NCBI GenBank assembly: GCA_937864265.1
Contig: CALMIR010000029.1
Location: forward strand, 1-42,244
Source of the DNA: an uncultured Saprospirales bacterium
GTDB lineage: Bacteria; Bacteroidota; Bacteroidia; Chitinophagales; Saprospiraceae
Length of the DNA stretch: 42,244 nt
Direction of reading: 5' to 3'
Shown here: positions 4,152 through 39,237 of the stretch, piece by piece
Layout: each line of letters starts with the position of its first letter
Numbering within the stretch: position 1 is the first letter of the stretch
Translations under genes and position numbers: made by a program
Notes under the pieces: model-generated
What the model saw: the letters and a program-made list of their open reading frames with translations, nothing else
The model's database searches: none
What the model was told of the DNA's origin: nothing

Positions 4152-4385
4152 CAGAAAAATTAAGTTCCCGATTTGTCCTTACCCTAGCGGGCTAAACGGT
4201 TCATTTTAAGTGTGTCTGCTAGGGTAAGGACTTTGATAAATTGGGAAGTAATTTTTTGCACACTACTAATCAGAAAAATTAAGTTCCCGATTTTGTCCTT
4301 ACCCTAGCGGGCTAAACGGTTCATTTTAAGTGTGTTCGCTAGGGTAAGGACTTTGATAAATTGGGAAGTAATTTTTTGCACACTA
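4152..4385. repeat. Tandem direct repeat of 2 x ~115 bp at 119-bp period, each copy containing a 14-bp perfect inverted repeat
   Basis: Copy A is 4152..4265 and copy B is 4271..4385. They are near-identical, differing by a 1-nt indel and a CT/TC swap. Each copy has the stem gtccttaccctagc / gctagggtaaggac (e.g. 4175-4188 with 4218-4231) around a ~29-nt loop. The pair lies between a + gene end (4043) and a + gene start (4471). Confidence 0.8.
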
Positions 4386-5697: not shown

Positions 5698-6008
5698 AAT
5701 CCATACTAGTCGAACATTTCTATTTTTTTGCCGAATAAAATGGTAAATTTATCCGCAGCAACCGCATAATTGCAACATCACCCGAATGAAACAGTTACTT
5801 GAAAAGGACACAAAGAACAAATCGTTAAACCATTGATCCTTTGTAACCTACCTTCCGCACACTTAGTGAAAAGTAGTGTTGTTTTCTCGTAACATTTTCC
5901 AAATCAACGCGATTAATGATTGCCCCACACATTGTGTGGAAAATCAAAGCCGATTGTTACCGCTTGTTCATGCTGAGCAAGCAGGATCAAATGCAATATC
6001 ATCCTAAA

Positions 6009-6650
6009 ATGACTGAACTCCTTCAAGCCGCCCTCGAACCTGTTAACCTCTTCTACACGACCTTACTGGCTATGGTTTTGCTGTACTGGCTTTCTGTAAT
6101 GCTCGGTGCGCTGGACATCAGTGCACTGGATTTTGATCTGGACACAGCCGATGCCGACGTAGATGCCGACCTGCATGGAGGGGGAAGTTGGTTGGCTGGG
6201 GTGCTCCATTTCTTTAATTTTGGTCGCTTGCCCTTTATGGTCGTTATGAGCGTTGTCGTATTGGCCGCCTGGTGTCTGGCCATCTTAGGCAATTACTACA
6301 TCGGGCAACATACCTGGGGCTTCGCTTTGGCTACCTTTTTGCCCATCATTTTCGCAAGCTTGGTGTTGGCCAAGCTCATCACCGCGCCACTCGTCCCGCT
6401 GTTTGCCCACTTGGACGGCACGGTTCAGGAAGTGGACTATATCGGCCAAGTATGCCAAATCCGCCTACCCGCCAATGCGGAAAAATTCGGCCAGGCCGAA
6501 GTACAGATCGACGGCGACTGGTTGCTCATCCATGTAAAGACCGAAACCCAGGAAATGGCATTGCGCAGCGGCGAACAAGCCCTAGTCGTAGGCAAAACGC
6601 CTGATGGTCGGTACTACCTCGTGCGCCGATTGGAGGATGACAAGGACTGA
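6009..6650 (+). CDS. NfeD/YqiJ-like inner membrane protein (flotillin partner, OB-fold C-terminus)
   Basis: ORF 5916..6650. The Met at 6009 gives an N-terminus typical of YqiJ-type proteins (MTELLQAALEPVNLFYTTLLAMVLLYW, then the acidic DFDLDTADADVDAD stretch). Several TM helices follow, then a C-terminal beta-rich segment (AEVQIDGDWLLIHVKTE..ALVVGKTPDGRYYLV) resembling the NfeD OB-fold. Sits 71 bp upstream of a flotillin gene. GC-rich. Confidence 0.6.
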   Translation: MTELLQAALEPVNLFYTTLLAMVLLYWLSVMLGALDISALDFDLDTADADVDADLHGGGSWLAGVLHFFNFGRLPFMVVMSVVVLAAWCLAILGNYYIGQHTWGFALATFLPIIFASLVLAKLITAPLVPLFAHLDGTVQEVDYIGQVCQIRLPANAEKFGQAEVQIDGDWLLIHVKTETQEMALRSGEQALVVGKTPDGRYYLVRRLEDDKD

Positions 6651-6721
6651 TAAGCTGGGCAGCAGCCCCCCATCAGCCACTAATTTTTGCCAATAAAATT
6701 TTAACCCTAAATAGTACTTTC

Positions 6722-8809
6722 ATGAACTTTTTCCTAGTTATTGAACCCCTGTTTATCGCCGTAGCCATCGGTTTGATGGTCGTTGTATTGGGCATCTTTT
6801 TTGCCATAGCAAGTTGGTATAAAAAAGTGCCTCAGGGCAAGGCCATTATTGCCACCGGATTTCGGGGCACCCGCGTTGCCTTTGAAAATGGCTTGATGGT
6901 CATCCCCGTTTTCGAAATGCACGAGCAAATGGATTTGTCCGTAAAAACGGTCGAGATCAGCCGAATGAAAGAAGATGGTTTGATTTGCAAAGACAACATC
7001 CGCGCCGACATCAAAGTCGTTTTCTTTGTGCGCATCAACAAAGACGCCACCGACATCAAGAAAGTGGCCCAGTCCATCGGCTGTCAGCGCGCTTCCGATT
7101 ACGAAACCCTGCGCGAACTCTTTGAAGCCAAATTCTCCGAGGCCATCAAAACCGTGGGCAAACGCTTCGACTTTGTCGAGCTATACGACAACCGCGAAAA
7201 GTTCAACGCCGAAATCCAAAACACCATTGGCGAATACCTCAACGGCTACAAACTGGATGATGTGGCCATCGACTACCTGGAGCAAACCGACCTGAGTTAC
7301 CTAAAGGAAAACAACATCCTCGACGCGGAAGGTATCAAGAAAATCGCCGAACTGACCGCAGCCCAAAAGGTAAAAGCCAACTTCATCCGCCGGGAAGAAG
7401 AAAAAACCATCAAAGAACAAAACGTTGAGGCCCGCGAAGCCATCCTCGAATACGAACGCCAATTGGCCGAAAAGGAAGAGCGACAGCGCCGTGAAATAGC
7501 CAACGTCAAAGCCCGCGAAGAGGCTGAAATAGCCAAAATTCGCGAAGAGGAGCGCCTGCGTGCCGAAATGGTACGTATCCGCACCGAAGAAGAACTGGCC
7601 ATCGCCGAAGAAAACAAAATGCGCCAGGTGATCGTGGCCGCCAAAAATAAAGAACGCACCGAAGCCGTAGAAAACGAGCGCGTGGAAAAAGACCGCATGC
7701 TGGAGCAAACCGAGCGCGAAAAGATCGTTTCGCTGGCCGAAATCGAGAAACAACGCGCCATCGAACAGGAAAAGAAAACCATCCAAGATGTGATCCGCGA
7801 CCGCATCATGGTGGAGAAAAAAGTGGTCGAAGAAGAAGAAAAAATCAAAGACACCCGCGTGTTGGCAGAAGCAGAGCGCTCCAGACAAAAGACCGTCATC
7901 GAGTCCACCGCTTTGGGTGAAGCCGGTATTATTGAAAAACAAAAAGCCGCTGAAGGCCAAAAACTGGCTGCTGAAATCTACGCCCAAACTATGCTGGTAG
8001 AAGCTGAAGCCAAAAAGAATGCCTCCGAGAAAGAAGCCGAAGCCCGTAAAATCATAGCCGAAGCCCGCGCCAAAGAAGAAGCTACCATCGGTATGTCAGA
8101 AGCACAGGTAACAGAAGCCAAAGCCAAAGCCCGCGAACTGGAAGGCAACGTAGAGGCCAATGTGCTGGAGAAAAAATCGCTGGCCGAGGCCCGCAGCATC
8201 GAAGCCAAAACCGAAGCCCTGCGCAAACAAGGCCTGATGGAAGCCCAGGTATTGGAAGAAAAAGGCGGCAAAGAAGCCAAAGTATTGGAAGAAAAGCTGA
8301 TTGCCGAAGCCCGTGGTGTGGAACAAAAGGCCAAAGCCATGAAACAACTCGACGGCGTGGGCAAGGATCACGAAGAGTTCAAACTCCGACTGGAAAAAGA
8401 GAAAGCCATCGAAATGGCCTCCATCAACGTGCAGAAAGATGTTGCTCAAGCTCAGGCTACCGTGCTCGCCGAAGCCCTGAAAAATGCCAAAATTGACATC
8501 ATAGGCGGTGAAATGCAGTTTGTCAACTCCATCCTCAACGCTGTAAACCGGGGCAAAACCCTGGATCAACTGGTGGACAACAGCCGCCACTTGGGTGATG
8601 TCAAAACGGCGCTGTTGGGCAATGGTCAAAACCATGGCAATGATGGTTTCTTGTCCAGAATAACCCAACTGGCTACCAAAGCCGGCCTTTCTGCCGATGA
8701 CCTTAAAAATCTTTCCCTCGCCGCCCTGCTGACCCGCGTTAGCAAATTTGCCAGCAAGCAGGAACGCGCCCTTTTCCAACAATTATTGGGAACGGAAGGC
8801 GAGCAGTAA
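6722..8809 (+). CDS. Flotillin-family (SPFH/band-7) protein with long Glu/Ala/Lys-rich coiled-coil
   Basis: N-terminal TM helix followed by the SPFH start (YKKVPQGKAIIATGFRGTRVAFENGLMVIPVFE). About 350 aa of EA/EK-rich coiled-coil typical of bacterial flotillins (YqiK/FloT-like). GC-rich. Confidence 0.85.
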   Translation: MNFFLVIEPLFIAVAIGLMVVVLGIFFAIASWYKKVPQGKAIIATGFRGTRVAFENGLMVIPVFEMHEQMDLSVKTVEISRMKEDGLICKDNIRADIKVVFFVRINKDATDIKKVAQSIGCQRASDYETLRELFEAKFSEAIKTVGKRFDFVELYDNREKFNAEIQNTIGEYLNGYKLDDVAIDYLEQTDLSYLKENNILDAEGIKKIAELTAAQKVKANFIRREEEKTIKEQNVEAREAILEYERQLAEKEERQRREIANVKAREEAEIAKIREEERLRAEMVRIRTEEELAIAEENKMRQVIVAAKNKERTEAVENERVEKDRMLEQTEREKIVSLAEIEKQRAIEQEKKTIQDVIRDRIMVEKKVVEEEEKIKDTRVLAEAERSRQKTVIESTALGEAGIIEKQKAAEGQKLAAEIYAQTMLVEAEAKKNASEKEAEARKIIAEARAKEEATIGMSEAQVTEAKAKARELEGNVEANVLEKKSLAEARSIEAKTEALRKQGLMEAQVLEEKGGKEAKVLEEKLIAEARGVEQKAKAMKQLDGVGKDHEEFKLRLEKEKAIEMASINVQKDVAQAQATVLAEALKNAKIDIIGGEMQFVNSILNAVNRGKTLDQLVDNSRHLGDVKTALLGNGQNHGNDGFLSRITQLATKAGLSADDLKNLSLAALLTRVSKFASKQERALFQQLLGTEGEQ

Positions 8810-8816
8810 GGGTAAG

Positions 8817-8915
8817 TAGTTTCTGGTTTCAAGTTTCTGGTTTCTGGTTTCAAGTTTCAGGTTTCAGGTTTCTGGAACTAGAAACTTGAAACCAGAAACC
8901 TGAAACCAAAAAAAA
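8817..8915. repeat. Heptamer repeat array (GTTTCWR x8) followed by four inverted heptamers (hairpin-forming) and an A8 run
   Basis: Forward units: gtttctg gtttcaa gtttctg gtttctg gtttcaa gtttcag gtttcag gtttctg. Then aactagaaac ttgaaac cagaaac ctgaaac c, then aaaaaaaa. Occupies nearly the whole 111-bp gap between flotillin and the giant gene. Confidence 0.75.
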
Positions 8916-8920
8916 GTTCT

Positions 8921-11900
8921 ATGCAAAACCCCAGCCTTGACGGTGGTACCTACGAAATCATTCGCAATCGCCTGCACCAACAGGCCGCATCACTGAGCGA
9001 GCGCCTGACCCGACTCAACCAGGAGCGGAAGGCTGTTTTCGGTGCCATCGAAACCAAGCTCATCGCTGCCGATCGCATCAAAACGGGCAATTACTGTCTG
9101 GCTCGCGATATTGTGGCCATTGGCAACCGCTGCCTTTTTGGTTACAACGTTCACATCGGGCTGCGTTCTGGTATTCAGCTCAGCGACGTGTTCAGCATCT
9201 ATGAATTCCGGGAGCAGCGCTTTCAGGAAAGCACGCTGGATATGCTGTCGAATGAGCAATTCCAGATCGATTTTCAAAACCTGTACCGCTACTACAAAGA
9301 AGCCTACTTCGCCCGTTTTTCCATCCGCGATGCCTATTTGTACATGGTATTTCGCCTAAAACCCGGCGGCGAAGACATCAAAACCTTTAAATGGCTCATC
9401 GCCGATGCCGGCCTGCAATACATCGACAACCGCTCCGACCATGAAGTGCGCTTCCCCAACCAATACGAATTCCAGTGGCGGCGGGCTTCCCGCGACCACC
9501 ACCGGATGGGTAAACACCCCCACGTATCGGTACTGGATCGGGTGTTTGTGGAAACGGTAGGCGGCGACCTGACCATTAAGGTAGAAGACAATACCGATGA
9601 CGGACGCGGCATCTACCGAGAAAGTGTCGAGCACCGCGATCAAACCCTGGACGATGCCGAATACCAATACGCCGATTTGGGCAACCTCATCGCACTGAAG
9701 ATCAAACCCTATCAGGAGGCCGAGCGCTATTTTATTTTTAATGAAAAATTGCAGGAAGTCAGGCGGGTGGACAGCCTGGCCGATTCCGGCGTTTTGTTGC
9801 CCGACGGGCACGGACTTATTTTTGCCAATGGCTATTACCTCCAAACTGGCGAATACAAAATATTTGAAACCGATGTAAAAGGCAAGCGTTTCAAAAAGCG
9901 CATCAGTTCTCCGAATGGGGAGGATTACCTCTACGCTTTTTACGACGACAACGACGGCGTTTTTGTGCTGTTGCACTACAACCTCATTTCCCAAAGCGTA
10001 CAAACGCCTATCATTTGCAATGGCTTTACCCTTTTTCCGAAAGGGGAGCTTTGTTATTTCAAAAGGGAAGCGGAGCCGACCAAGCATCACGCCATGCAGA
10101 TATGGCAAACTCCTTTTCTGACGGGCGAATCCTTGCCCTCGGAGCATTCTGATTCCTATCTGTACAAGGTGGGAAACAAAGACATCGTCCGAGCGATGGC
10201 CGAATGCCAGGAGATCATTACCCTGGCCAATAAAGAAGACAATTACGCCAATTTGTACGACGATCTGGTGCGCCGCTGTACCGATGCCATTGATGGGTAT
10301 TATTGGATCGCCCAAGCGGAGGCTTTTCGATTGGATGAACCCCTGCGGCAGTTGCGCGAAACAGCCAATGCAGCCATAGATGAATTTGCCAAAAAACGGC
10401 GCATCGAACGCGAATCAAAAGCCGCACTGACCCAAACCCGGGAAAAGGCCGAAGCGCTATTTGACAAAATCAAACGTCAGTCTTTCGACAGCATCGACTT
10501 GTTGGTGCACGCCTTGGGCGATTTGCGCCTGCTGCGCGGCGAAATCATCGGCCTAAAAGCGCTTCAATATACCGATGAAAAGCTCATTGCCGAACTGGAA
10601 ACAAAAGCGGAGGAGTTTTCGAGCCGCTTGTCGGAAGATAGCGTGCGTTTTTTGCTGGAACCAGAAGCGCTGGCGCCCTACACCCAACGCATAGATGCCC
10701 TGGAAGCCCAATTGCCAGAAGCGCGGACAGTGGTACAGGGAAACGGACTGGAGCAGGCGCTGGATGAAACCGGCAAAGAATTGGAATTGCTGATTGAAGT
10801 GGTCAGCAACCTGAAAATAGAAGACGCCACCCAGACCACCGTCATCATTGACCGCATATCCGACTTGTATGGGCGACTCAACCAGGTTCGCACAGCCCTG
10901 CGCCGACAGATACAAGATTTGCGCCGGGTGGAATCGGCGGCAGAATTCAGCGCCCAACTCAAATTGCTGGATCAGAGCATCATCAACTTCCTGAGCTTGT
11001 CTGATACGCCTGCCCGCTGCGACGAATACCTGACCAAGCTGATGGTGCAACTGGAGGAATTGGAGGGGAAATTTGCCGAGGTCAATGAGTTCATTACGCA
11101 GGTAGCCGAAAAGCGGGAAGCCATTTTTACCGCCTTTGAAGCCCGCAAAAACGAACTGGTCGAAGCCCGGAACAACCGGACTACCGCCCTGCAACAGGCT
11201 GCCGACCGCATTCTGGAAGGCATGCAGCGCCGCGTGAGCAATTTCAAAGAGGTCAATGAAATCAATAGCTTTTTTGCTGCCGACCTGCTCATTGACAAGG
11301 TGCGCGACATCGTGCGCCGCTTGGAGGAGCTAGAGGATACCACCAAAGCCGGGCAGATACAAGCCCGCATGAAAGCTTTGCAGGAAGAGGCCATCCGCCA
11401 ATTGCGGGACAAAAAGGAACTGTTTGAAGCAGGCAGCAACTTGATTCGCCTGGGGCGCCACCGCTTTGCAGTAAACGTGCAAGCCCTGGAGCTGACCACC
11501 GTTCGCAAAGGCGACGAACTGCAGTTGCACCTGACGGGTACGCAGTTTTATCAAACCATTTCAGATACAGCCTTGCTGAGTGCGAAACCTTTTTGGGATC
11601 AGGTGTTGGTTTCGGAAAATGCGCAGGTTTATCGGGCAGAATATCTGGCTTACGATTTTTTTTACAATTCGGGTAAAGAGACCCTGCCAAGTGATCAAAA
11701 AGCCCTTCAGGAACTGGTAACCCGCCATGCCGTGACCCGCTATCGGGAAGGTTACACGAAGGGGGTTCACGATGAAGATGCTGCCCGCATCATCAGCGGT
11801 TTGCAAGAAATGGCCGCTGGTATTGGGATGTTGCATTTTGCCCCTCCAATACGGGCTATGGCGCGCCTGTGGTGGTCGGCATTTTGCGAAAGCGGACAAC

Positions 11901-13774
11901 GACAACTCCTCCAACAGCAATTGAGCAGTGCCGGCATTATGCTGCGTATTTTTCCTAAAACCACGGAGTTTGAGTATTTGGTCGATGAGTTGGCGCAAGG
12001 ACTTCGGGATTTTGCCGATTACTCAGGGCTTTTCCCCGCAGCTTGGGCCGCCAAATCCGCTGTTTATTTATTTCAGGAAATGAGCGCTGGATCGTTGTTT
12101 TCCATCAGTCAGGAAGCGGTACAGCTCAGCGCTTCTTTTGAAAAAAACCTGAAAGCCAAAAAGGCACAAACCCTTTTCAAAGATTCTGTGGCTGCGCTGG
12201 ACGATCAGCCCCTGGCCCGCTATCGCCTCATCAGGCGCTGGGTGCAAGCTTTCCTGGAGGAAATTGGCTTGGAAAAAGAAGCTTTCCTGGATGAAACAGC
12301 CTGCCGCATGGCACTCGACAAGCCAGCAGAAGAACAGGTGGTTTCTGCCATTACCCGGAAGACCATTGATGGGATGCGGGGTGAGCACCCTGTCATTAAA
12401 GACGGCATTTACGTGCTGGATTACCACCAGTTTAGCGATAAGCTGAGCCATTACCGGCAGCATATTCAACCGGGCTTTCTGGCCTATCAGGATGCCAAGC
12501 GCAGTCTGGCGGAGCAACACCGCAAAGCCCTGCACTTGGAAGAATTCCGGCCCAAGGTACTGACTTCTTTTGTGCGCAATCGCCTGATTGATCAGGTATA
12601 TCTGCCGCTTTTTGGCGACAACCTGGCTAAGCAAATTGGCACGGCAGGCGAAGCTACCCGGACGGATCGGATGGGCTTGTTGCTCTTGCTCTCTCCGCCG
12701 GGCTATGGCAAAACCACCCTGATGGAGTATGTGGCCAGCCAATTGGGCTTGGTATTTGTGAAAGTCAATGGCCCGGCTTTGGGGCATCGAACGCACTCGC
12801 TGGCGCCGGAAGATGCGCCCACCTTGGCGGCCCGCCGCGAGTTGGAACGCCTCAACCTGGCCTTGGAAATGGGCGATAATGTGATGCTGTACGTGGATGA
12901 CATTCAGCACTGCGATGCCGAGTTTTTGCAAAAATTCATCTCGCTTTGCGATGGACAGCGCAAGATTGAAGGCGTTTTCAATGGAGAGGCGCGCACCTAC
13001 GACCTGCGTGGCCGCCGCTTTTGTGTGGTGATGGCCGGCAACCCTTATACGGAGAGCGGCACCCGCTTCCAGATACCGGATATGTTGGCCAACCGAGCGG
13101 ATGTGTATAACCTAGGCGATATCATCGGCGGTCAGGCGGATGTATTCCAACTCAGCTATATCGAGAATGCCCTTACGGCAAATGGGGTATTGCGCCAATT
13201 GGCCAATCGCAGTATGAAGGATGTGTATGCCTTGCTGCGCGTGGTCGAGTCGGGCAATCGGGAGGGATTGAATTTGGAAGGGAACCACGCCCCGGAAGAT
13301 ATGGCGGCTTACCAATCGGTGCTGGCCAAGTTCTTGCGCGTACGCGATGTGATTCTAAAAGTGAATAAGGCCTATATCCAATCGGCGGCTATGGAAGATG
13401 ATTACCGCAGCGAACCGGCTTTCAAACTACAAGGCTCTTACCGCGATATGAACAAACTGGCCGAGCGCATCGAGCCGATCTTGAACGATTCGGAATTGGA
13501 AACCCTCCTGCTGGGGCATTACGAAAATGAAGCGCAAACGCTGACGGGACATGCGGAAGCCAATTTGCTCAAGCTGAAAGAACTGCTGGGAACGCTCTCC
13601 CATGAAGAAGCCACCCGCTGGGCCGACATCAAACGCACTTTCCAAAAGAATAAGATGCTGCGCGGCACAAATGGAGAAAATCCGGTGGCTCAGGTCGTCG
13701 CTCAACTGGATCAGTTCAATGAGGGCTTGTCGAAAATCCGGGAGGCGATTGAGGGCAGCAGGAAAGGAGGCTGA
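8921..13774 (+). CDS. Giant (1617 aa) multidomain protein with coiled-coil middle region and C-terminal Lon/HCLR-clade-like AAA+ ATPase module
   Basis: Uninterrupted 4.85-kb GC-rich ORF. Walker A LLLLSPPGYGKTTLMEY and Walker B MLYVDDIQH. The ATPase segment's overall spacing resembles the Lon AAA+ module. The N-terminal ~1200 aa were not recognised. Residues ~440-800 are heptad-rich and coiled-coil-like. Confidence 0.8.
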   Translation: MQNPSLDGGTYEIIRNRLHQQAASLSERLTRLNQERKAVFGAIETKLIAADRIKTGNYCLARDIVAIGNRCLFGYNVHIGLRSGIQLSDVFSIYEFREQRFQESTLDMLSNEQFQIDFQNLYRYYKEAYFARFSIRDAYLYMVFRLKPGGEDIKTFKWLIADAGLQYIDNRSDHEVRFPNQYEFQWRRASRDHHRMGKHPHVSVLDRVFVETVGGDLTIKVEDNTDDGRGIYRESVEHRDQTLDDAEYQYADLGNLIALKIKPYQEAERYFIFNEKLQEVRRVDSLADSGVLLPDGHGLIFANGYYLQTGEYKIFETDVKGKRFKKRISSPNGEDYLYAFYDDNDGVFVLLHYNLISQSVQTPIICNGFTLFPKGELCYFKREAEPTKHHAMQIWQTPFLTGESLPSEHSDSYLYKVGNKDIVRAMAECQEIITLANKEDNYANLYDDLVRRCTDAIDGYYWIAQAEAFRLDEPLRQLRETANAAIDEFAKKRRIERESKAALTQTREKAEALFDKIKRQSFDSIDLLVHALGDLRLLRGEIIGLKALQYTDEKLIAELETKAEEFSSRLSEDSVRFLLEPEALAPYTQRIDALEAQLPEARTVVQGNGLEQALDETGKELELLIEVVSNLKIEDATQTTVIIDRISDLYGRLNQVRTALRRQIQDLRRVESAAEFSAQLKLLDQSIINFLSLSDTPARCDEYLTKLMVQLEELEGKFAEVNEFITQVAEKREAIFTAFEARKNELVEARNNRTTALQQAADRILEGMQRRVSNFKEVNEINSFFAADLLIDKVRDIVRRLEELEDTTKAGQIQARMKALQEEAIRQLRDKKELFEAGSNLIRLGRHRFAVNVQALELTTVRKGDELQLHLTGTQFYQTISDTALLSAKPFWDQVLVSENAQVYRAEYLAYDFFYNSGKETLPSDQKALQELVTRHAVTRYREGYTKGVHDEDAARIISGLQEMAAGIGMLHFAPPIRAMARLWWSAFCESGQRQLLQQQLSSAGIMLRIFPKTTEFEYLVDELAQGLRDFADYSGLFPAAWAAKSAVYLFQEMSAGSLFSISQEAVQLSASFEKNLKAKKAQTLFKDSVAALDDQPLARYRLIRRWVQAFLEEIGLEKEAFLDETACRMALDKPAEEQVVSAITRKTIDGMRGEHPVIKDGIYVLDYHQFSDKLSHYRQHIQPGFLAYQDAKRSLAEQHRKALHLEEFRPKVLTSFVRNRLIDQVYLPLFGDNLAKQIGTAGEATRTDRMGLLLLLSPPGYGKTTLMEYVASQLGLVFVKVNGPALGHRTHSLAPEDAPTLAARRELERLNLALEMGDNVMLYVDDIQHCDAEFLQKFISLCDGQRKIEGVFNGEARTYDLRGRRFCVVMAGNPYTESGTRFQIPDMLANRADVYNLGDIIGGQADVFQLSYIENALTANGVLRQLANRSMKDVYALLRVVESGNREGLNLEGNHAPEDMAAYQSVLAKFLRVRDVILKVNKAYIQSAAMEDDYRSEPAFKLQGSYRDMNKLAERIEPILNDSELETLLLGHYENEAQTLTGHAEANLLKLKELLGTLSHEEATRWADIKRTFQKNKMLRGTNGENPVAQVVAQLDQFNEGLSKIREAIEGSRKGG

Positions 13775-13837
13775 GTAGTTTTTGCATTTTTTTGTAACGG
13801 AAGTGGCTGGATAGTTACACTTAAAACCCTTTTTGCG

Positions 13838-13866
13838 TTGAAAGTATTATTTTTTTGCAAAAAAGT
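13838..13866. promoter_or_regulatory. Near-perfect AT-rich palindrome (tattatttttttgc / gcaaaaaagtaata) immediately upstream of the 13890 gene; candidate operator
   Basis: Inverted repeat seen directly, with one mismatch. A TAnnTTTG-type box (tacctttg, ~13877-13884) lies between it and the ATG. Confidence 0.3.
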
Positions 13867-13889
13867 AATAAAATTGATACCTTTGTGTC

Positions 13890-14258
13890 ATGAAATGGTA
13901 TGAAAATCTACCGCTTGATTGCCCACCCCAAGAAGCAAGTACCCCAAATGGTGCTTACTTTCGTTTAGGAAGTATTCCGCCCGATGAAAGCGACTTTTGG
14001 TCGCACAGACGGCGGTTTCCACATAAAAAATTTCACGTCGACGAATGCATCGCACGATCATTATCCATTTTTGATGCTCAAGATTCGGCTGAACGACTGA
14101 AACAGTTGTTGCCTGCTATGCGATCAAAGCCTGTTTTTCAGTTAGATTTGTTTGAAAAAGACGGTTTAGTCCAACGGACAGGTAACGATTTGCATCATTT
14201 TTCATGGTGGCGAAGTACAGATTTTGACTTAGCAACCATTAAAATTTTAGAACTATGA
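13890..14258 (+). CDS. Hypothetical 122-aa protein (first gene of inserted two-gene cassette; possible toxin-like partner)
   Basis: ORF with intermediate GC. Its stop overlaps the next start by 4 bp (ATGA). Contains an Rx5H string (RTGNDLHH) reminiscent of, but not diagnostic for, a HEPN motif. No recognisable family. Confidence 0.5.
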   Translation: MKWYENLPLDCPPQEASTPNGAYFRLGSIPPDESDFWSHRRRFPHKKFHVDECIARSLSIFDAQDSAERLKQLLPAMRSKPVFQLDLFEKDGLVQRTGNDLHHFSWWRSTDFDLATIKILEL

Positions 14259-14773
14259 ATTTCTCGCTTAGCATTCAGGAAACCCTAATTTGGCACGATT
14301 ACCCGCAGTTGTTCGTGGCAAAAGACAAAATCGGAGGTCTCCAATTGTGTCTTGCCATTGACGATACACCTCAATACCTGTCAGTGGCTATATCAAGTAC
14401 CCGATTGCAAGATTTGAAATTGGGTAAAATTGACCTCCATAGCGTTTTTGCCACACCCGAACTCGGAGTATGGTTTCGGGTAAAACTAACCGACACCGAT
14501 GAAATTATAGCCGAAATCATACCTTCTACAGAATCTATTCCCCCTGAATGGTTGCCTGTACCCAATGTATTTTTGCCCTACACCCCGCTTTTGCGCCCCG
14601 AAACCTTTGAAGTGGTAAAAGTCGGAGCAGTCGCCAAAGAGGCGGGGATGAACCCAACCTTGTTGCGCCAATATTTATCAGGCGTTAAACAACCTTCGCG
14701 CGAGCAGGCTTTGCGCGTACAAGATGCCCTGCACCGTGTAGCGAAAAGGTTGTTGGAGGTGCAGTTTGTTTGA
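14255..14773 (+). CDS. Hypothetical 172-aa protein with C-terminal XRE-like helix-turn-helix
   Basis: The C-terminal VAKEAGMNPTLLRQYLSGVKQPSREQALRVQDALHRVAKRL fits the XRE-family HTH pattern. Translationally coupled to the upstream gene. Confidence 0.55.
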   Translation: MNFSLSIQETLIWHDYPQLFVAKDKIGGLQLCLAIDDTPQYLSVAISSTRLQDLKLGKIDLHSVFATPELGVWFRVKLTDTDEIIAEIIPSTESIPPEWLPVPNVFLPYTPLLRPETFEVVKVGAVAKEAGMNPTLLRQYLSGVKQPSREQALRVQDALHRVAKRLLEVQFV

Positions 14774-14846
14774 TTTTCTCTTCCCACTGGATTTCGGCTT
14801 CGACGGGCGATAGCATCTGCAGGCAGGTGGATGTATTCCAACTCAG

Positions 14847-15047
14847 TTGTATGAACTATTGGGAAGGCTCTCCCATGAAGAAGCCGCCCGCTGGGCCGAC
14901 ATCAAACGCACCTTCCAAAAGAATGAGATGCTGCGCGGCACAAATGGAGAAAATCCGGTGGCTCAGGTCGTCGCTCAACTGGATCAGTTCAATGAGGGCT
15001 TGTCGAAAATCCGGGAGGCGATTGAGGGCAGCAGGAAAGGAGGCTGA
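14847..15047 (+). pseudogene. Decayed duplicate of the 3' end of the giant AAA+ gene (encodes its last ~62 aa nearly verbatim; TTG start only)
   Basis: The translation ELLGRLSHEEAARWADIKRTFQKNEMLRGTNGENPVAQVVAQLDQFNEGLSKIREAIEGSRKGG differs at three positions from the C-terminus of 8921..13774. An 18-mer 14829-14846 (ggatgtattccaactcag) matches 13140-13157 of the giant gene, so ~430 bp appear deleted in between. There is no ATG start. Confidence 0.65.
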
Positions 15048-15091
15048 GTAGTTTTTGCATTTTTTTGTAACGGAAGTGGCTGGATAGTTAC
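14864..15091. repeat. Direct repeat copy 2 of giant-gene 3' end plus 44 bp of downstream sequence (copy 1 about 13598..13818)
   Basis: ~225 bp near-identical to 13598..13818. The shared downstream sequence tgagtagtttttgcatttttttgtaacggaagtggctggatagttac follows both stop codons. The copies diverge immediately after gatagttac. Confidence 0.8.
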
Positions 15092-15159
15092 TAACGGGTT
15101 AAGTCTTTATGATGTTCCCCCAAAAAAAAGGTAATATGGATTCCTTGAATATAAAGGTG

Positions 15160-15936
15160 TCAAGCAAGTAAATCGGCTACTTGTTGGAGTTTAGCCTTTA
15201 ATGCCTCACTTTTAACTTTATCAATTTGCTCGATTAAAAAAGGTTGGAAAGACTGCCAATCCTTTTGTAATTGATGATAAGATGTAATCCTAAATAACCA
15301 ATGGGAAGATGTTGGAAAAATCGTATTACTTATTGCTTCGAATGCTGTTTTTTCAATAATTAGCAAATGCGCTACTAATTCTTCTACCTGGGCTTCTTGA
15401 TAATCCCCACTTTTCAATAAGGTTAAAACAAGTCCGAAAATAAAAAATGGAACTTCTTCTAAGTCTGTGCCATTTTCCGTTATTCTCCAAGCTAATAACT
15501 TACTTACGTGGTGTAACATTTTGGGGAGAATGTATTGCAAAGATTCACTTGACTGAATCAGCCGAATGATAGTACTATTCTCTCCCACACGATTTTGATA
15601 CCATTCATAAGGCACCATAAGCAAGATGGCACAAGAAAACGCAATAGCCAAATTATCCTGTTGCGCTTTTGTAAGCCATTTGTCGGTAGTTTGTTCAGGT
15701 TTTTGCCATCTAGTCAGTTCCACGACCTCTGAAAGTGCCCCGTCAAAATTCATGCTATGAATTTCTGAATGCTGCTTAATACGCCTTAATTCTTTCAAAT
15801 AAGCATCGGCATAAACGCCATAATCTGCCTGCGAGATCTTTTCAAGTATTTGGCCATTGACGTGTTTACAAAGATATTCGAGCAATTCTTGGGGCTGATT
15901 TTGAAAAGGTGCTAAGATCAAATGTAGGTCTTTCAT
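15160..15936 (-). CDS. Hypothetical protein (AT-rich orphan gene)
   Basis: 258-aa ORF on the minus strand with no recognisable motifs. Its low GC contrasts with the flanking GC-rich genes. Confidence 0.45.
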   Translation of the reverse strand: MKDLHLILAPFQNQPQELLEYLCKHVNGQILEKISQADYGVYADAYLKELRRIKQHSEIHSMNFDGALSEVVELTRWQKPEQTTDKWLTKAQQDNLAIAFSCAILLMVPYEWYQNRVGENSTIIRLIQSSESLQYILPKMLHHVSKLLAWRITENGTDLEEVPFFIFGLVLTLLKSGDYQEAQVEELVAHLLIIEKTAFEAISNTIFPTSSHWLFRITSYHQLQKDWQSFQPFLIEQIDKVKSEALKAKLQQVADLLA

Positions 15937-16162
15937 GTTGACAGTTTAGTGGTGAAATTACGAAATCAAGAGATAATGAGGTAGCAGCCTTTATTTTCTC
16001 ATGGTACTTGTCTGTGCAATTTGATATACACCCAAATCAAGTCCCGTAGGGATGCTGCGTGTTATACAATTTCCTCCAAAAATCTTACACCGCCCATTAT
16101 TTTTGATTACCTTTTGCCCCGAAAAACGCCCCTTGGCGTCGATTCTGTAAAAGCAACGTATT

Positions 16163-17869
16163 ATGCAGCTAAAAGAACCCGGGCAGGTATATGATGCCGT
16201 CATAGTAGGCTCCGGCGCAGGTGGAGGTATGACCGCCAAAATCCTGGCCGACAAAGGCTGGCGCATAGCCGTCATTGAAGCAGGCCCCTATTTTGATCCA
16301 GCCGACCCGGCTACCAAAACACAGATGCGCTGGCCCTGGGAAAGCCCCCGCCGCGGCGCTGGAACGGTGCGCCCTTTTGGCGATTTTGACATGGCCTACG
16401 GTGGCTGGGACATTGAGGGAGAACCCTACACCAATGCGGAAGGCTCCGATTTTCGCTGGTTCCGTTCCCGCATGCTCGGCGGGCGTACCAACCACTGGGG
16501 GCGCATATCGCTGCGTTTTGGTCCCAATGATTTCCATCGCAAAGACATAGACGGCCTAGGTGCCAATTGGCCCATCAGCTACGAGGACGTCAAGCCGTAT
16601 TACGACAAGGTGGACAAACTCATCGGCGTTTTCGGCACCAATGAAGGGCTACCCAATGACCCCGACGGTTTCTTCCTGCCGCCACCAAAACCGAGACTAC
16701 ACGAGTGGTATTACATCAAAGGTGCCAAAAAAAGCGGTGTTACGGTGATCCCCAGCCGCTTGTCCATCCTCACCAAAAAGCTGCATCCCGACCGCGGGGT
16801 TTGCTTCTATTGCCGCCAATGTGCCCGTTCTTGTATGGCATATGCCGACTTTAGTTCCGGCAGTTGCCTCATTTTTCCTGCACAAAAATCTGGCGGCCAA
16901 ATTGACCTTTTCGTGGAATGCATGGCCCGCGAAGTAGTCACGGACAGCAGCGGCAAGGCTACGGCGGTGAGCTATGTCAATAAAAAAGACCGCCGCGAAT
17001 ACCAGCTCAAAGGCAAAGTCATCATACTGGCAGCCTCTGCCTGCGAAACTTCCCGCATCCTGCTCAATTCCAAGAGCAGCATCCACCCCAACGGATTGGG
17101 CAATGGCAGCGGCGTAGTGGGGCACTACCTGCACGATAGCACGGGCAGCAGCATGAGCGGTTTTATTCCTGCCCTCATGGATCGCGACATCTATAATGAA
17201 GACGGTGTGGGCGGCCTGCATGTGTATTCGCCGTGGTGGGGAAACAACAAAAAACTCGATTTTCCACGGGGCTACCACATCGAAGTATGGGGCGGCATGG
17301 ATATGCCGGGTTATGGTTTCGGATGGGATCATGCTGTCGTTCAGCGCGCTATGGGCATGCGGCCCGGAGGCTATGGCAGTAGCCTAAAAGACGAGGTCAA
17401 GCGCTTCTATGGCGCATACGTAGGCATGTCAGGCAGGGGTGAAGCGGTGGCTCGCTACGAAAACTATTGCGAGATTGATCCTTTGAAAGTGGACGAATGG
17501 GGCATCCCTGTGCTGCGTTTCAACTACAAATGGTCGGATTATGAGAAGAGGCAGGCCCGCCACATGCAGCATACATTCGAGGAAATCCTCACCAACATGG
17601 GAGCCACCATCCTCAGCGAAAAAGGCACGGCTGCCAATGATTACGGCCTCAACAAGCCCGGTGAAATCATTCACGAGGTAGGTACAGCCCGCATGGGTAG
17701 CGACCCCCGCGACTCGGCTACCAATGCCTTCGGCAAGCTCCACGAGGTGCCCAACGTCTATATCACCGATGCGGCCACCTTCCCCAGCCAAGCCGACAAA
17801 AACCCCACCTGGACCATCATGGCGCTGGCCTGGCGAACGGCCGATCACCTTATTGCGGAATACAAATAA
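16163..17869 (+). CDS. GMC-family FAD-dependent oxidoreductase (gluconate 2-dehydrogenase flavoprotein-like)
   Basis: N-terminal Rossmann motif VIVGSGAGGGMTAKILADKGWRIAVIEAG and C-terminal GMC signatures (GTARMG, DAATFPS). GC-rich. Confidence 0.85.
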   Translation: MQLKEPGQVYDAVIVGSGAGGGMTAKILADKGWRIAVIEAGPYFDPADPATKTQMRWPWESPRRGAGTVRPFGDFDMAYGGWDIEGEPYTNAEGSDFRWFRSRMLGGRTNHWGRISLRFGPNDFHRKDIDGLGANWPISYEDVKPYYDKVDKLIGVFGTNEGLPNDPDGFFLPPPKPRLHEWYYIKGAKKSGVTVIPSRLSILTKKLHPDRGVCFYCRQCARSCMAYADFSSGSCLIFPAQKSGGQIDLFVECMAREVVTDSSGKATAVSYVNKKDRREYQLKGKVIILAASACETSRILLNSKSSIHPNGLGNGSGVVGHYLHDSTGSSMSGFIPALMDRDIYNEDGVGGLHVYSPWWGNNKKLDFPRGYHIEVWGGMDMPGYGFGWDHAVVQRAMGMRPGGYGSSLKDEVKRFYGAYVGMSGRGEAVARYENYCEIDPLKVDEWGIPVLRFNYKWSDYEKRQARHMQHTFEEILTNMGATILSEKGTAANDYGLNKPGEIIHEVGTARMGSDPRDSATNAFGKLHEVPNVYITDAATFPSQADKNPTWTIMALAWRTADHLIAEYK

Positions 17870-17880
17870 AGCAAGTACCC

Positions 17881-18606
17881 ATGGATAGACGCGAATCGTT
17901 AAAAAACCTCTTGGCAGGTGCTGCAATAACCAGCGCCCTGTTTACCCAATTGTCTTGTGAGCGTGCTCCCGACCATGAAGAAAGTGCCGCTGCTTCGCCG
18001 TCCGATTTCCCCTTCGAGGGTACGCGCACGCAAGAAGAGCAAAGGCGCGATGCCCGCATGCATGCCACCGATTTTTTTCTGGAATCGGAAAAACAAACCC
18101 TCACCACCTTATCTGACTTGATTTTGCCGGAAGATGGCAAAGGTCCGGCGGCCTCAAAAACGGGTGTGGTGGATTTCATAGAATTCATGGCGCTGGACTT
18201 TCCCGACTTCCAAGTGCCGCTGCGTGCGGGGCTGGCTTGGCTCAGTGCCGAATCGTTGGAGCGTTTTGAAAACAATGATTTTTCTGCCCTCCAGCCTGCC
18301 CAACAAAAACAACTGCTGGACGAGATTGCGTACCTGCCCGATGACCCTATGGAGGAGCTCACGGCGCCGGTTGCGTTTTTTGATCTGGTACGCGGGTTGG
18401 TACTCACCGGCTATTTTACCAGTAAGGAAGGTGTCGCTGATTTGGGCTACAAAGGCAATATGGCCAATATCTGGGACGGCGTTCCTCAGGAAGTCCTCGC
18501 CAAGCACGACATCGAGTACGACCCTGCCTGGGAAGCCAAGTGCATCAACCAAGACACCCGTGAAACCTTGGCGGAGTGGGACGAAAATGGAAAACTGCTG
18601 AATTGA
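17881..18606 (+). CDS. Gluconate 2-dehydrogenase subunit 3-family protein (Tat-signal small subunit partner of the GMC oxidoreductase)
   Basis: Twin-arginine-like N-terminus (MDRRESLKNLLAGAAITSAL). Lies 12 bp after the GMC gene. Size and position are typical of the small subunit in these pairs. Confidence 0.6.
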   Translation: MDRRESLKNLLAGAAITSALFTQLSCERAPDHEESAAASPSDFPFEGTRTQEEQRRDARMHATDFFLESEKQTLTTLSDLILPEDGKGPAASKTGVVDFIEFMALDFPDFQVPLRAGLAWLSAESLERFENNDFSALQPAQQKQLLDEIAYLPDDPMEELTAPVAFFDLVRGLVLTGYFTSKEGVADLGYKGNMANIWDGVPQEVLAKHDIEYDPAWEAKCINQDTRETLAEWDENGKLLN

Positions 18607-18961
18607 CGAGGCTTAGCTTATCCTTAAACACGTCAGGTAAGGGTGTTTACACGAAAAAATTTTCAATCTCAATTTTTGGGTCTTTGGAGGCTCCAAAATT
18701 GACATCATTCATTTTGTGGTAAACGCGGGTTTGTTTTTCAAATTAAAAAAGCTGTTTTAGTTGCCCTGTGGAATGGGGGAATACTTCACTGAATTAAAAT
18801 TTGAGATAAAACCTCAATACCCCCCAGCACCCGCTTGTTCCATTTGGGTTGATGCTCAACCGAGTACATGGGCTACGTGCCGCCGAGTGTTATCCCGAAA
18901 GTTATCGGGATGCGGGCTGGGCTTTCGCCGCCATGAGCGACCATGCATTGGTAGCGGCTTT

Positions 18962-20071
18962 TTATTTTACCCAAGGTTCTTTTTCAATGGCATTCATGAA
19001 TTGCCCACCATCATAAATGCATATTCCTTGCCAAGTGCCAAACCAAAGTTGTCCTTTGTTATCTTCAAAGATACTAAGAACAAGATTTGAAGTTAATCCG
19101 TTTTCAGTAGTGTATAATGTGAAATTTGTCCCATCATATTTATAAACGCCAACATTTTCTGCCGTAAACCAAATGTTTCCTTTACTATCTTCATAAAGCC
19201 CACCAGTTTCTTCACCTTTAACAATTCCATCTTTTGTAAAATTGGTGTACGTTTTACCATCGAATTTACTTATACCTCCATAAAAAGTTCCAATCCAAAT
19301 ATTCCCATGCTTGTCCGCCAAGATATCCGCCGCATTATTGTCCGTCAGTCCGTTCTTGTTGCTTAAATGAGTAAATGCTCCTTTACTGTATTTAAAAATA
19401 CCATTTCCATCAGTAGCCAGCCAAATGGTGCCACTTTTGTCTTCTACAATTTTGAAAACCAATTGATCAGATAGCATGTGCTGCGGATTTTCGACCATGG
19501 AATCTGGCAAGGGAAGCGATATAAACTGCTCCCCGTCAAAATGACTAAGGCCTCCAGTCGCCCCAACCCAGATTAGTCCGCTTTTGTCAATTGTTAAACC
19601 CCAAATTTCCTCTTCCTCGCCTTGTAATCCTTCTTTTTTTGAAAAGGTTGTAAACTTTTCGCCATCGTATTTTAGGAGTCCATCGGAAGTGCCAAACCAT
19701 ACATTACCTGCTTTGTCTTCTACAATTTCCATCACCCTCATATATGGATTGGTTCCTTCGATTGTAATGGTTTCAAGCGTTTGCCCATCGTAACGGATAA
19801 TCCCATTTCCATTTGTTCCAAACCAATAGTTCCCTTTTGTATCTTGATACATCGCCCTGACAAATTCCCTTACCATTCCATTTAAATTGGAGTGAATTTG
19901 CGGAAATATTGTATGTTGCTTCAGGGCAGGTACCTGGTTCTCTTGGGTGTTTTCCACCTTTCCTTCATTTACATTGACTTGTCCATAGCAAGAAGAAAGA
20001 TGAAGTGCGATAAACACAAAAATTAGCATTCTTGCCGGAAAGGGGGTTTTGCTTTTTATTGCTATCATGTT
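18962..20071 (-). CDS. Two-component-regulator propeller-repeat (Reg_prop/Y_Y_Y-like) secreted lipoprotein
   Basis: ORF 18962..20155. The internal Met at 20071 gives a lipoprotein signal (MIAIKSKTPFPARMLIFVFIALHLSSC). Repeated GNIWFGT / GLIWVGAT / GTIWLATDGNG motifs are characteristic of beta-propeller sensor repeats. Confidence 0.65.
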   Translation of the reverse strand, partial: NMIAIKSKTPFPARMLIFVFIALHLSSCYGQVNVNEGKVENTQENQVPALKQHTIFPQIHSNLNGMVREFVRAMYQDTKGNYWFGTNGNGIIRYDGQTLETITIEGTNPYMRVMEIVEDKAGNVWFGTSDGLLKYDGEKFTTFSKKEGLQGEEEEIWGLTIDKSGLIWVGATGGLSHFDGEQFISLPLPDSMVENPQHMLSDQLVFKIVEDKSGTIWLATDGNGIFKYSKGAFTHLSNKNGLTDNNAADILADKHGNIWIGTFYGGISKFDGKTYTNFTKDGIVKGEETGGLYEDSKGNIWFTAENVGVYKYDGTNFTLYTTENGLTSNLVLSIFEDNKGQLWFGTWQGICIYDGGQFMNAIEKEPWVK

Positions 20072-20335
20072 TTTATTTTTCAACCATCCGTTTTTTCTGT
20101 CCAAAGCATTTGCTGTGTTTTCTAAAGTTTTCAAGTCTGAAAATTTCACCCCCATAGTTGTCGGCTTACTTCGGGCTATTTCTGTCGTGTGGAACCTATT
20201 TTTAGGTTCTATTGTCCATTACAAATTTACAATTTTTTCCTTATGATTCCTCGGATTGCTGTCGTTGTAGAGTGGGGTAGGGCGGGTGCGCTAACGCAGC
20301 CGGCCTTAGTCGGTTGACGGTGGTGCGGTGTATAT

Positions 20336-20602
20336 GCCTCGAATGAGCATCGAAGATGCTCCCTTCGAGCTGTATTTAAGCTGACGCGCTTAAAGATAGC
20401 AAGTCAACGTCTTTCCAAAGGGAAAGTGCTCTGGGGAGGTGAAAGGCCTCCTCACCGTCACCGAAGCGCGGTTGCGCAAGCGGGGTTTTTGGAATACTAC
20501 CTCCCCGTTAAGTCCCGCGACGCACAGCCACCACCCATGCCAGCACGTTCACCAAGAAACGATAAGTTGTTCTTTGAACCGCGAAGTACGTGATCCGTAC
20601 GC
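20336..20602. repeat. 267-bp direct repeat, copy 1 (perfectly identical to 38902..39168); GC-rich, hairpin-dense, non-coding
   Basis: Identity was read directly, from cctcgaatgagcatcgaagatgctcc through gtgatccgtacgct. Nested hairpins: ctcgaa-[gagcatc gaa gatgctc]-ttcgag; tatttaagc/gcttaaagata; ctttcc aaa ggaaag; ggagg tgaaagg cctcc; and a 14-bp bulged stem cgaagtacg..cgtacGCttcg at the 3' end. The flanks are similar but diverged. Confidence 0.85.
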
Positions 20603-20672
20603 TTCGTGGTGGGAGCGGGATAAGAGCAGCTGACTGGCTGGTTTTAGGCTACTTGCTTAGCGGTTTTTCTAC

Positions 20673-38713: not shown

Positions 38714-38901
38714 GAATGATTTGAGCAATCTAGCTATAAATAGAACTATTAACCATATCGAGCTAATTAAATTTTGACAAAAAGCTTTATGGGTGTAGCA
38801 TTTATATTGATCGCCCTTGCACCCGCAGGGTTTCAGCCGACGTGTTGGCTACACGCAGGTGGCGCGTTTAGTGACACTTGCCGTTGTAGCCGTTGTGTGT
38901 A

Positions 38902-39168
38902 CCTCGAATGAGCATCGAAGATGCTCCCTTCGAGCTGTATTTAAGCTGACGCGCTTAAAGATAGCAAGTCAACGTCTTTCCAAAGGGAAAGTGCTCTGGG
39001 GAGGTGAAAGGCCTCCTCACCGTCACCGAAGCGCGGTTGCGCAAGCGGGGTTTTTGGAATACTACCTCCCCGTTAAGTCCCGCGACGCACAGCCACCACC
39101 CATGCCAGCACGTTCACCAAGAAACGATAAGTTGTTCTTTGAACCGCGAAGTACGTGATCCGTACGCT
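38902..39168. repeat. 267-bp direct repeat, copy 2 (identical to 20336..20602)
   Basis: Perfect identity over 267 bp by direct comparison. Flanks are diverged but weakly similar (e.g. cgttgtag on the 5' side, gtggtg.gag.ggg on the 3' side). Sits in a convergent intergenic region. Confidence 0.85.
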
Positions 39169-39237
39169 GGGTGGTGTGAGAGGGCTGCGGTGGGGCATCT
39201 TGGCTCACCGTTCCCTACTCGATTGGCAGCAGTCTTT

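Follow-up and report, generated by a model that had tools for sequence, protein, structure and literature searches.

A two-gene cassette between direct copies of a gene 3′ end in an uncultured Saprospirales bacterium

The 42,244-nt stretch of DNA analysed here (hereafter the window, with positions counted from its first letter) comes from an uncultured Saprospirales bacterium and carries a giant gene for a DUF3686/AAA protein, the 3′ end of which recurs further downstream as a decayed copy. Between the two copies lies a cassette of two small genes, which we label casA and casB, and a contig of the same species shows a single copy of the gene end and no cassette. An insert lying between direct copies of its target, a single-copy empty allele and points of exchange that vary within the repeat all fit a Campbell-type event, and we favour, with a probability of about 0.6, the view that single crossovers between homologous sequences (Campbell-type recombination) account for both the gain and the loss of an insertion-duplication unit at this locus. 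The processes concerned (insertion-duplication, loop-out deletion, gene conversion and a mobile toxin-antitoxin/defence module) are all known, and this is no new class of system; the interest of the locus lies rather in offering a natural, base-resolved example of a small defence/toxin-antitoxin cassette that would be gained and lost at the strain level without a mobility gene, with occupied and empty alleles both present in public assemblies and flanking repeats that show concerted evolution.

Layout of the duplicated gene end

The initial annotation had noticed that the end of the giant open reading frame (ORF) and 44 bp beyond it recur about 1.27 kb further on, and our searches confirm it. 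A repeat search, and again a whole-window scan, found a direct repeat of 247 nt (13572-13818 versus 14845-15091, 96% identity) at a spacing of 1273 nt, with an ungapped core of 239 nt (13580-13818 versus 14853-15091, 97% identity) made up of the last 195 nt of the ORF, whose stop codon lies at 13772-13774, and of 44 nt downstream. All 6 mismatches of the core fall inside its first 73 nt and its final 166 nt show zero differences between the copies in the window; a 25-nt probe taken from the repeat end has 2 exact matches in the window against a chance expectation of 0.00. A second trace of the gene is found at 14806-14852, which resembles 13115-13161 at 40 of 47 nt (85%; GDIIGGQADVFQLSY versus GDSICRQVDVFQLSC) and was also recovered by the whole-window scan. 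The downstream copy is without the 418 nt (13162-13579) between its two pieces, and the joint of this deletion shows an imperfect microhomology (CTCAGCT / CTCAAGCT). The features of the locus are as follows.

8921-13774, plus strand: giant gene, 1617 amino acids (aa), intact, with DUF3686, DUF7902 and a C-terminal AAA ATPase (Pfam; the C-terminus aligns to the end in relatives)
13115-13161, plus strand: segment A of the giant gene, source of relic A′ (repeat searches)
13580-13818, plus strand: direct repeat copy 1 (R1), the final 195 nt of the giant ORF with its stop codon and 44 nt beyond (repeat searches, probe, allele comparison)
13819-13841, plus strand: left filler J1, 23 nt, outside both the gene and the conserved cassette (cassette homology elsewhere begins at 13830-13842; no other match in the window)
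13842-14778, plus strand: conserved cassette unit, 937 nt (sharp ends common to unrelated contexts)
13890-14258, plus strand: casA, 122 aa, predicted ADP-ribosyltransferase (ART)/RES-like fold, weak homologue of PD-T4-10_A
14255-14773, plus strand: casB, 172 aa, N-terminal DUF6575 beta domain and C-terminal Xre-type helix-turn-helix (HTH)
14779-14805, plus strand: right filler J2, 27 nt (no other match in the window)
14806-14852, plus strand: relic A′, decayed copy of 13115-13161 (40/47 identical; I1401S, G1403C, Y1413C)
14853-15091, plus strand: direct repeat copy 2 (R2, or B′), in a frame different from that of A′, non-functional, partly homogenised with copy 1
15092-15936, minus strand: sequence directly 3′ of the giant gene in the empty-site allele, including a 258-aa accessory ORF (15160-15936, minus strand) (empty-site junction)

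Read in order, the 1273-bp unit consists of filler J1, the cassette with its promoter, casA and casB, filler J2, the 47-nt relic A′ and one 239-nt copy of the repeat; 987 nt (13819-14805), both genes among them, separate R1 from A′. The downstream copy had been described as a pseudogene with a TTG start and about 430 bp missing. The pseudogene, its relic trace and the TTG-start ORF (14770-15051, 93 aa) are all present, but the gap measures 418 nt and the start codon is of no consequence: the deletion is a frameshift (14853-14806 leaves a remainder of 2 on division by three in the relic, against 0 in the gene), and since the ORF reads the B′ part out of frame, the copy is rightly called a pseudogene and its TTG start is incidental. 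The 93-aa ORF is thus a read-through artefact and should not be annotated as a gene. That the fillers and the DNA downstream might derive from the gene or from some repeated element was also considered, but they gave no significant match in the window; a possible inverted match of 9-11 nt between J1 (ACTTAAAACCC) and 15096-15104 (GGGTTAAGT) is too short to carry meaning. A scan for terminators and promoters around the repeats returned nothing exceeding the shuffle expectation.

The same arrangement is found in two assemblies of the European Nucleotide Archive (ENA), ERZ794931 (contig name of SPAdes style; 99.985% identical to the window) and ERZ27240677 (k141 contig name of MEGAHIT style), and a 1141-bp Logan contig built at k = 31 corresponds to window positions 13789-14929 and shows it too. 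Being present in all three, the occupied arrangement is no artefact of a single assembly.

Occupied and empty alleles

Conspecific contigs were found by exact-protein look-ups with the 258-aa ORF and a GMC oxidoreductase of the window. One of them, contig DAOLDU010000146.1 of an NCBI metagenome-assembled genome (MAG; GCA_035327225.1; L148/L151 in our comparison), follows the window from 7887 to 13818 and then directly from 15092 to 20391, its junction reading ...GATAGTTAC joined to TAACGGGTTAAG, with a single repeat copy and no cassette. Its sole further difference from the window in 11.2 kb is G>A at 13754, and empty and occupied alleles are otherwise identical across the 5.9 kb upstream. The contig is recorded in two samples, with one further similar place. 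The proposal that the locus results from an inserted element carrying a homologous fragment is supported by this contig, by the occurrence of the cassette in unrelated contexts and by its absence from 80 relatives of the giant gene, both of which are described below; cassette and pseudo-copy are lacking at the orthologous loci of these relatives as well as at the conspecific empty site, and with an empty allele at hand the arrangement is not one that all orthologous loci share.

It may be objected that there is no real polymorphism, the occupied form being a wrongly traversed repeat loop or the empty form a skipped one. The repeat, hereafter R, exceeds common k values; positions 13754 and 15027 shift in concert, with the same base in two SPAdes-style contigs (A/A or G/G) and A/G in the k141 contig, for which a collapsed repeat node is a possible cause; and several short contigs of about 1 kb hold the cassette alone. 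Yet the unique junctions R1-J1, J2-A′ and A′-B′ recur in three independent assemblies and in the k = 31 Logan contig, and a hybrid haplotype needs real k-mers, since the copy-2-specific G14925 sits 5 nt from the variable 14930. The empty-site contig, known from 2 samples and one similar place, stops not at R but with a 55-nt overlap (k = 55) within a 294-nt repeat of the window (at 20391); by its coordinates it starts near a 111-nt duplication, at about 4331, and it passes through R unbroken. Because this contig breaks at other repeats and runs straight through R, it can be argued that R is single-copy in that sample. Contig DAOLEJ010000255.1 of a sister MAG (L149) opens within R, exactly 55 nt short of its end, which is the branch expected of a de Bruijn graph and implies that R has two exits where the unit is present. 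We do not think, therefore, that the empty site comes from an assembler skipping a loop, although a residual risk is kept, and an artefact seems to us an improbable account of the two alleles. In practical terms, R is a sequence at which short-read assemblies break or are mis-joined.

Ten sites distinguish the two copies of the repeat, namely, in order, 13585, 13586, 13593, 13613, 13639, 13652, 13657, 13690, 13732 and 13754, with the following alleles.

ERZ27240677: copy 1 GCCATAGTGA, copy 2 ATGGCGACAG
ERZ794931: copy 1 GCCATAGTGA, copy 2 ATGGCGGTGA
This window: copy 1 GCCATAGTGG, copy 2 ATGGCGGTGG
Empty allele (single copy): GCCATAGTGA, no second copy

The lone repeat of the empty allele has the copy-1 alleles. 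All 10 sites differ between the copies in ERZ27240677, where only the final 64 nt are identical, while in the two other assemblies (ERZ794931 and the window) the 3′ part of copy 2 has taken on copy-1 alleles: the four sites 13657/13690/13732/13754 read, in copy 1 and copy 2, GTGA and ACAG in ERZ27240677, GTGA and GTGA in ERZ794931, and GTGG and GTGG in the window. Over 11.6 kb, four of the five single-nucleotide differences between ERZ27240677 and the window fall in the repeats. The end of the Logan contig, at 14929, is one base short of the variable 14930 and 4 nt past the copy-2-specific G14925, as is expected if both copy-2 haplotypes occur in that run. These allele mosaics indicate non-reciprocal homologous exchange (gene conversion), unless consensus steps after assembly made them. 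The G/A variation at 13754 (and 15027) exchanges Gly and Ser at residue 1612 of the giant protein, a change made in parallel in both copies in ERZ794931.

The statement that the copies are nearly identical needs qualification in this light. It holds for the core in the window (97%), but the likeness is partly due to homogenisation, ERZ27240677 differing at 10 sites and the relic being about 6-15% diverged in its unconverted parts; since the copies were homogenised, the near-identical repeat of the window overstates the youth of the duplication. In its unconverted parts the relic differs from the gene at 7 of 47 sites in A′ and at 10 of 175 sites in B′. Three of its substitutions (I1401S, G1403C and Y1413C) hit residues that are conserved in the family and are never or almost never seen in the 80 relatives, and the differences between relic and gene comprise 10 nonsynonymous and 7 synonymous ones. 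With conserved residues hit and nonsynonymous differences in this proportion, the relic has evolved largely without constraint.

The pattern of divergence bears directly on another explanation, in which the 3′ end of the gene was replaced. By homology-facilitated illegitimate recombination, DNA imported from a related strain, with the cassette already following its gene tail, would have recombined homologously within the gene at one end; the far end would have been joined illegitimately at 13115, and the resident tail, thus displaced, would be decaying. Such a replacement accounts for the duplication of at least 704 nt and for filler J2 at the A′ joint, for an empty allele in an otherwise identical background and for a cassette without recombinase, and the 7 synonymous changes between the copies are expected if the divergence is partly allelic. 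It predicts, however, a roughly uniform divergence, yet the 3′ 64-166 nt, of which 44 are non-coding, are identical to an extent that depends on the assembly; because this identity is graded and variable among assemblies, gene conversion must be added to the replacement anyway. A donor-derived tail should also differ upstream of 13580, where the empty and occupied alleles agree over the 5.9 kb save at 13754, and no donor with the cassette adjoining a DUF3686 gene was found (0 cassette contexts elsewhere lie beside such a gene, and the cassette is absent at 80 of 80 DUF3686 loci). We consider it unlikely that the end was replaced in this manner; on that view the unit would not cycle, and the empty allele would simply be the un-recombined ancestor.

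The cassette and its other genomic contexts

Two translationally coupled small genes had been noticed between the copies, and casB indeed starts within the end of casA, the overlap being 4 nt (ATGA, 14255-14258). The cassette brings its own leader, with a promoter-like element (TTTG at 13854-13857, a 20-nt spacer and TACCTTTG at 13878-13885) that is conserved in all cassette contexts and that we take to fit the Bacteroidetes promoter consensus, hence a putative promoter. Within the same leader the repeat search found a palindrome at 13845-13870 which may be an operator. The product of casA matches the PADLOC model PD-T4-10_A weakly (E = 4.5e-6), casB has no PD-T4-10_B match, and neither protein has a sequence-level RES match in Pfam.

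PD-T4-10 consists of two overlapping ORFs that act as a toxin-antitoxin system and give abortive-infection defence against T-even phages in E. coli, and DUF6575 is among the new defence domains of the same paper (Vassallo et al. 2022, PMC9519451). The window resembles this system in its two small overlapping ORFs, in the match of casA to PD-T4-10_A and in the DUF6575 domain of casB; it departs from it in that the match is weak and confined to one protein, in its Bacteroidota host and in the place of the HTH, which is on casB, whereas the E. coli system has A as its antitoxin and B as its toxin. From Xre-RES pairs, whose RES toxins use NAD+ (MbcT, ParT, VPA0770), it differs in having the ART-like gene first, no Pfam RES match and an additional DUF6575 domain. 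From the two overlapping ORFs, the putative promoter and palindrome, the domains of casA and casB and the comparison with PD-T4-10, we infer that the cassette is an autoregulated module of toxin-antitoxin/defence type, related to PD-T4-10 and resembling Xre-RES. The HTH-bearing casB likely exerts this autoregulation by binding to the promoter palindrome, and the cassette may give abortive-infection defence, stabilise itself by addiction, or both. In five other contexts (L091, L092, L095, L096 and L097) casA is internally deleted while casB and the 42-nt promoter/palindrome are conserved (90% identical); the loss of casA is evidently tolerated there and casB retained. The casA-casB module is uncharacterised, widespread and well conserved in Bacteroidota metagenomes, and is a candidate for phage defence.

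As a unit with the same sharp ends, the cassette recurs in unrelated genomic contexts, of which at least 9 were found (at least 8 besides Runella defluvii), each with unrelated flanks. At the nucleotide level, its 13842-14778 sequence shares 76-83% identity with the closer loci, which lie in R. defluvii and in several metagenomic genomes; with all loci compared, the range is 68-83%. On the left the unit always begins with AAAGTATT..., about 48 nt 5′ of the casA ATG, and on the right it ends about 4 nt past the casB stop codon; across the contexts compared, these ends show no terminal inverted repeats, attC-like repeats or shared short core. Outside the window, flanking direct repeats are confined to the Runella group (27-40 nt) and to a group around the metagenomic contig L100 (23-70 nt, part of an array repeat) and are missing in at least 10 other cassette contexts; for that reason a long flanking duplication was rejected as the general insertion signature of the cassette. 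By inspection, R bears no resemblance to the Runella or L100 repeats. Carriage by phages or plasmids was likewise considered and is not supported: there are no relatives of the cassette in the viral contigs and no PHROG matches, and the plasmid search gave just distant DUF6575 matches, on two plasmids.

Two of these contexts deserve description in their own right. On contig JACIBY010000003.1 of R. defluvii (L087), casAB lies between 40-nt direct repeats (27 nt of them perfect; 5528-5567 and 6522-6561), and the 40-nt repeat takes in the start codon and the upstream region of an adjoining minus-strand gene, and so parallels, on a small scale, what is duplicated in the window. On ENA contig ERZ27314334 k141_416899 (L100), positions 7513-13174 hold seven copies of a 36-nt repeat (AAAAATAGAGAAAATACTGAGGGG...), often with a second, 37-nt repeat before it. 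These repeats bound small modules, among them casAB, a PemK toxin-antitoxin pair, a SnoaL-like gene and a pair with an aspartic-protease-like gene, so that accessory cassettes stand there in an array with no integrase visible.

Integrative elements that target gene 3′ ends carry a replacement end, and cis-mobilisable elements (CIMEs) devoid of a recombinase are known in streptococci. One may therefore ask whether the repeats of the window are attL and attR of a site-specific element of this kind, which restores the 3′ end of its target and depends on an integrase encoded elsewhere. The intact target gene, then the element, then the displaced gene end stand in the same order as in elements that target 3′ ends, with bounding direct repeats and no internal recombinase; the cassette ends are sharp in many contexts; and the Runella and L100 cassettes sit between short related direct repeats (23-70 nt), in the latter case within a module array with a 36-nt repeat. 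On the other hand, the Pfam scan revealed no integrase, transposase or recombinase domain in any scanned ORF of the 42-kb window, a result confined to enzymes encoded there, and no attC-like inverted repeat was found there. The repeats of the window are long (239 nt), with an identity between copies that is graded and extends over 64-239 nt with no short core, and its mosaic alleles resemble the outcome of homologous exchange. Moreover, R is unlike the Runella and L100 repeats, and flanking repeats are lacking in the at least 10 contexts already mentioned. A site-specific element is for these reasons an explanation to which we give little credit. Nor does the locus show the hallmarks of a transposon, an insertion sequence or a miniature inverted-repeat transposable element (transposase, terminal inverted repeats, a short target-site duplication), and no structured RNA or tRNA that might serve as an integration target was found in the window.

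Proposed recombination at the locus, and its surroundings

If the locus is an insertion-duplication unit, as we favour, its loss would proceed by loop-out deletion through recombination between the two repeats, and its gain by a single crossover between the chromosomal R and the R of an excised or imported unit. Since there is no integrase or transposase gene in the window, the general recombination machinery of the host is probably used. Gene conversion would hold the 3′ parts of the copies identical while the unconverted 5′ relic decays. In ERZ27240677, a crossover giving the observed copies from the empty allele would be possible only in the last 64 nt; to account for the remaining assemblies, one must add a heteroduplex or a conversion tract that extends to 13657. 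The founding event would have been an illegitimate join by which the cassette and the fillers came to stand between duplicated stretches of the gene tail at least 704 nt long. Imported DNA could have been joined by one-ended homologous plus illegitimate recombination, or a tandem duplication could have captured DNA at its joint. The parallel with Campbell-type integration, as practised in the laboratory for insertion-duplication mutagenesis, and with loop-out is close: the insert lies between direct copies of the target, the length of the unit is that of the insert and a repeat copy together, exactly one repeat is present in the empty allele, and hybrid repeat alleles occur. The window differs in that its event is natural, with no vector seen, in that the homology arm is a decayed and internally deleted fragment of a host gene, and in the extra founding join.

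Several points weigh against this interpretation. The empty-site contig could be a skipped loop, which a shared node of 64-166 nt at k = 55 permits without read support, and the empty allele could be either ancestral or a secondary deletion; the mosaic alleles in SPAdes-style contigs could be influenced by assembly or consensus steps. A circular or excised form was not observed, the Logan contig at 13789-14929 fitting either form. Homologous recombination explains the cycling of the unit but neither the origin of the first duplication nor the precise-ended arrival of the cassette at unrelated sites, and the duplication is not the general signature of cassette insertion, given the contexts without flanking repeats.

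A bolder extension of the Campbell-type reading, which we put forward only tentatively and think less probable than its contrary, is that the 1273-bp unit is a recombinase-free mobile cassette guided by homology, having captured a decayed 3′ fragment of a gene as a homing arm. The unit would leave as a circle and re-enter naive conspecific chromosomes by a single crossover that keeps the target gene intact; the arm would have its 3′ part continually refreshed by gene conversion, and addiction to the toxin-antitoxin pair would oppose loss. If true, a homing arm would represent a minimal route by which defence cassettes circulate in a population without a dedicated mobility gene.

The target gene itself belongs to a conserved family. 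Its product matches DUF3686 in Pfam (E = 3.8e-183), with no PADLOC match and no informative NCBIfam match, and it is the last gene of a conserved operon formed by a 244-aa ORF (5916-6650), an SPFH/flotillin gene (6722-8809) and the giant gene. We compared the orthologous loci of 80 family-level relatives, one genome per species, drawn from Bacteroidota, Planctomycetota and Verrucomicrobiota; the operon partners are present in 54-65 of the 80. The closest relatives, in the Saprospiraceae Phaeodactylibacter and Lewinella, reach at most 68% protein identity, and a search of 5.8 billion proteins for closer alleles of the gene tail gave none above 68% among the matches listed; with best relatives of 68% identity or less, the comparison cannot date the event. 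Downstream of the operon the gene content varies in every relative, and at 0 of the 80 loci is there a casA, a casB, the 258-aa ORF, the GMC oxidoreductase or a duplicated giant-gene 3′ end. The C-terminal 450 aa can be aligned over their full length with every one of the 80 relatives, at 57-68% identity and with conserved columns all along, and this region is accordingly not polymorphic.

This conservation bears on one suggestion of the initial annotation, namely that the locus is reminiscent of C-terminal cassette exchange, in which alternative 3′ ends are kept downstream as orphan modules and swapped in by recombination. There is a superficial likeness to the orphan C-terminal/immunity modules of cdiA and rhs, in that a silent copy of the 3′ end stands downstream, two small genes lie between, and the copies exchange sequence. 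But the stored copy has nearly the same sequence (90-97% identical), is frameshifted and has suffered a deletion; the tail is an AAA ATPase, conserved along its length and not hypervariable, with neither a toxin domain nor a demarcation motif; downstream fragments occur in 0 of the 80 relatives; and the small genes, rather than being immunity genes, form an autonomous toxin-antitoxin-like module that is found elsewhere without the giant gene. Short C-terminal-only homologues on long contigs, examined as possible orphan tails, proved to be one contig-edge partial and one frameshifted gene in Hymenobacter cellulosilyticus. An exchange locus is consequently very improbable, and we do not retain the suggestion. 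In H. cellulosilyticus (CP095046.1; L146, 4432-9461) the ortholog is split into ORFs of 1202 and 486 aa that overlap by 40 nt, through a frameshift or a sequencing error, and a PspA/IM30 gene ahead of the operon there hints at a membrane-stress context for the family.

The insert had also been said to differ in guanine-cytosine (GC) content from its surroundings. This is so locally (0.436 versus 0.53), but the cassette, at about 0.434-0.436, equals the background of the window (mean 0.431; 0.39-0.44, including secDF). The outliers are the flotillin-giant operon (0.51-0.53) and the GMC oxidoreductase/gluconate-dehydrogenase genes (0.55-0.56), and GC content was set aside as a sign of a foreign cassette. 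The high-GC blocks themselves (6001-13800 and 16100-18600), rather than the cassette, may have been acquired horizontally. Adjoining the insertion point is a low-GC stretch (0.37) with the 258-aa ORF (15160-15936, minus strand), which has no Pfam, PADLOC or PHROG match and about 270 homologues, several with an N-terminal Cys_rich_CPCC domain, and thus represents an uncharacterised accessory family.

Other repeats of the window lie outside the locus. Within the 111-nt gap between the flotillin and giant genes, a 41-nt inverted repeat (8820-8912, 85% complementary, with GTTTCTG/GTTTCAA units) could form a hairpin that regulates the operon. A 294-nt GC-rich direct repeat (20326-20619 and 38891-39184, 97% identical) occupies two intergenic places 18.5 kb apart; it matches neither an Rfam family, even at E ≤ 1, nor a tRNA, and its predicted fold is stabler than those of shuffled sequences on both strands (z about -2.9). 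The short-read contigs L082, L148 and L149 all end within it, and it could be an unrecognised noncoding RNA, a dispersed repeat or the edge of an island with DUF5131, GMT-wHTH, efflux and two-component genes. Lastly, a 111-nt near-tandem duplication (4155-4265 and 4275-4385, 91% identical) is located upstream of an AAA_14/DUF4143 ATPase gene (4471-5697), and it is exactly there that other assemblies break or diverge from the window.

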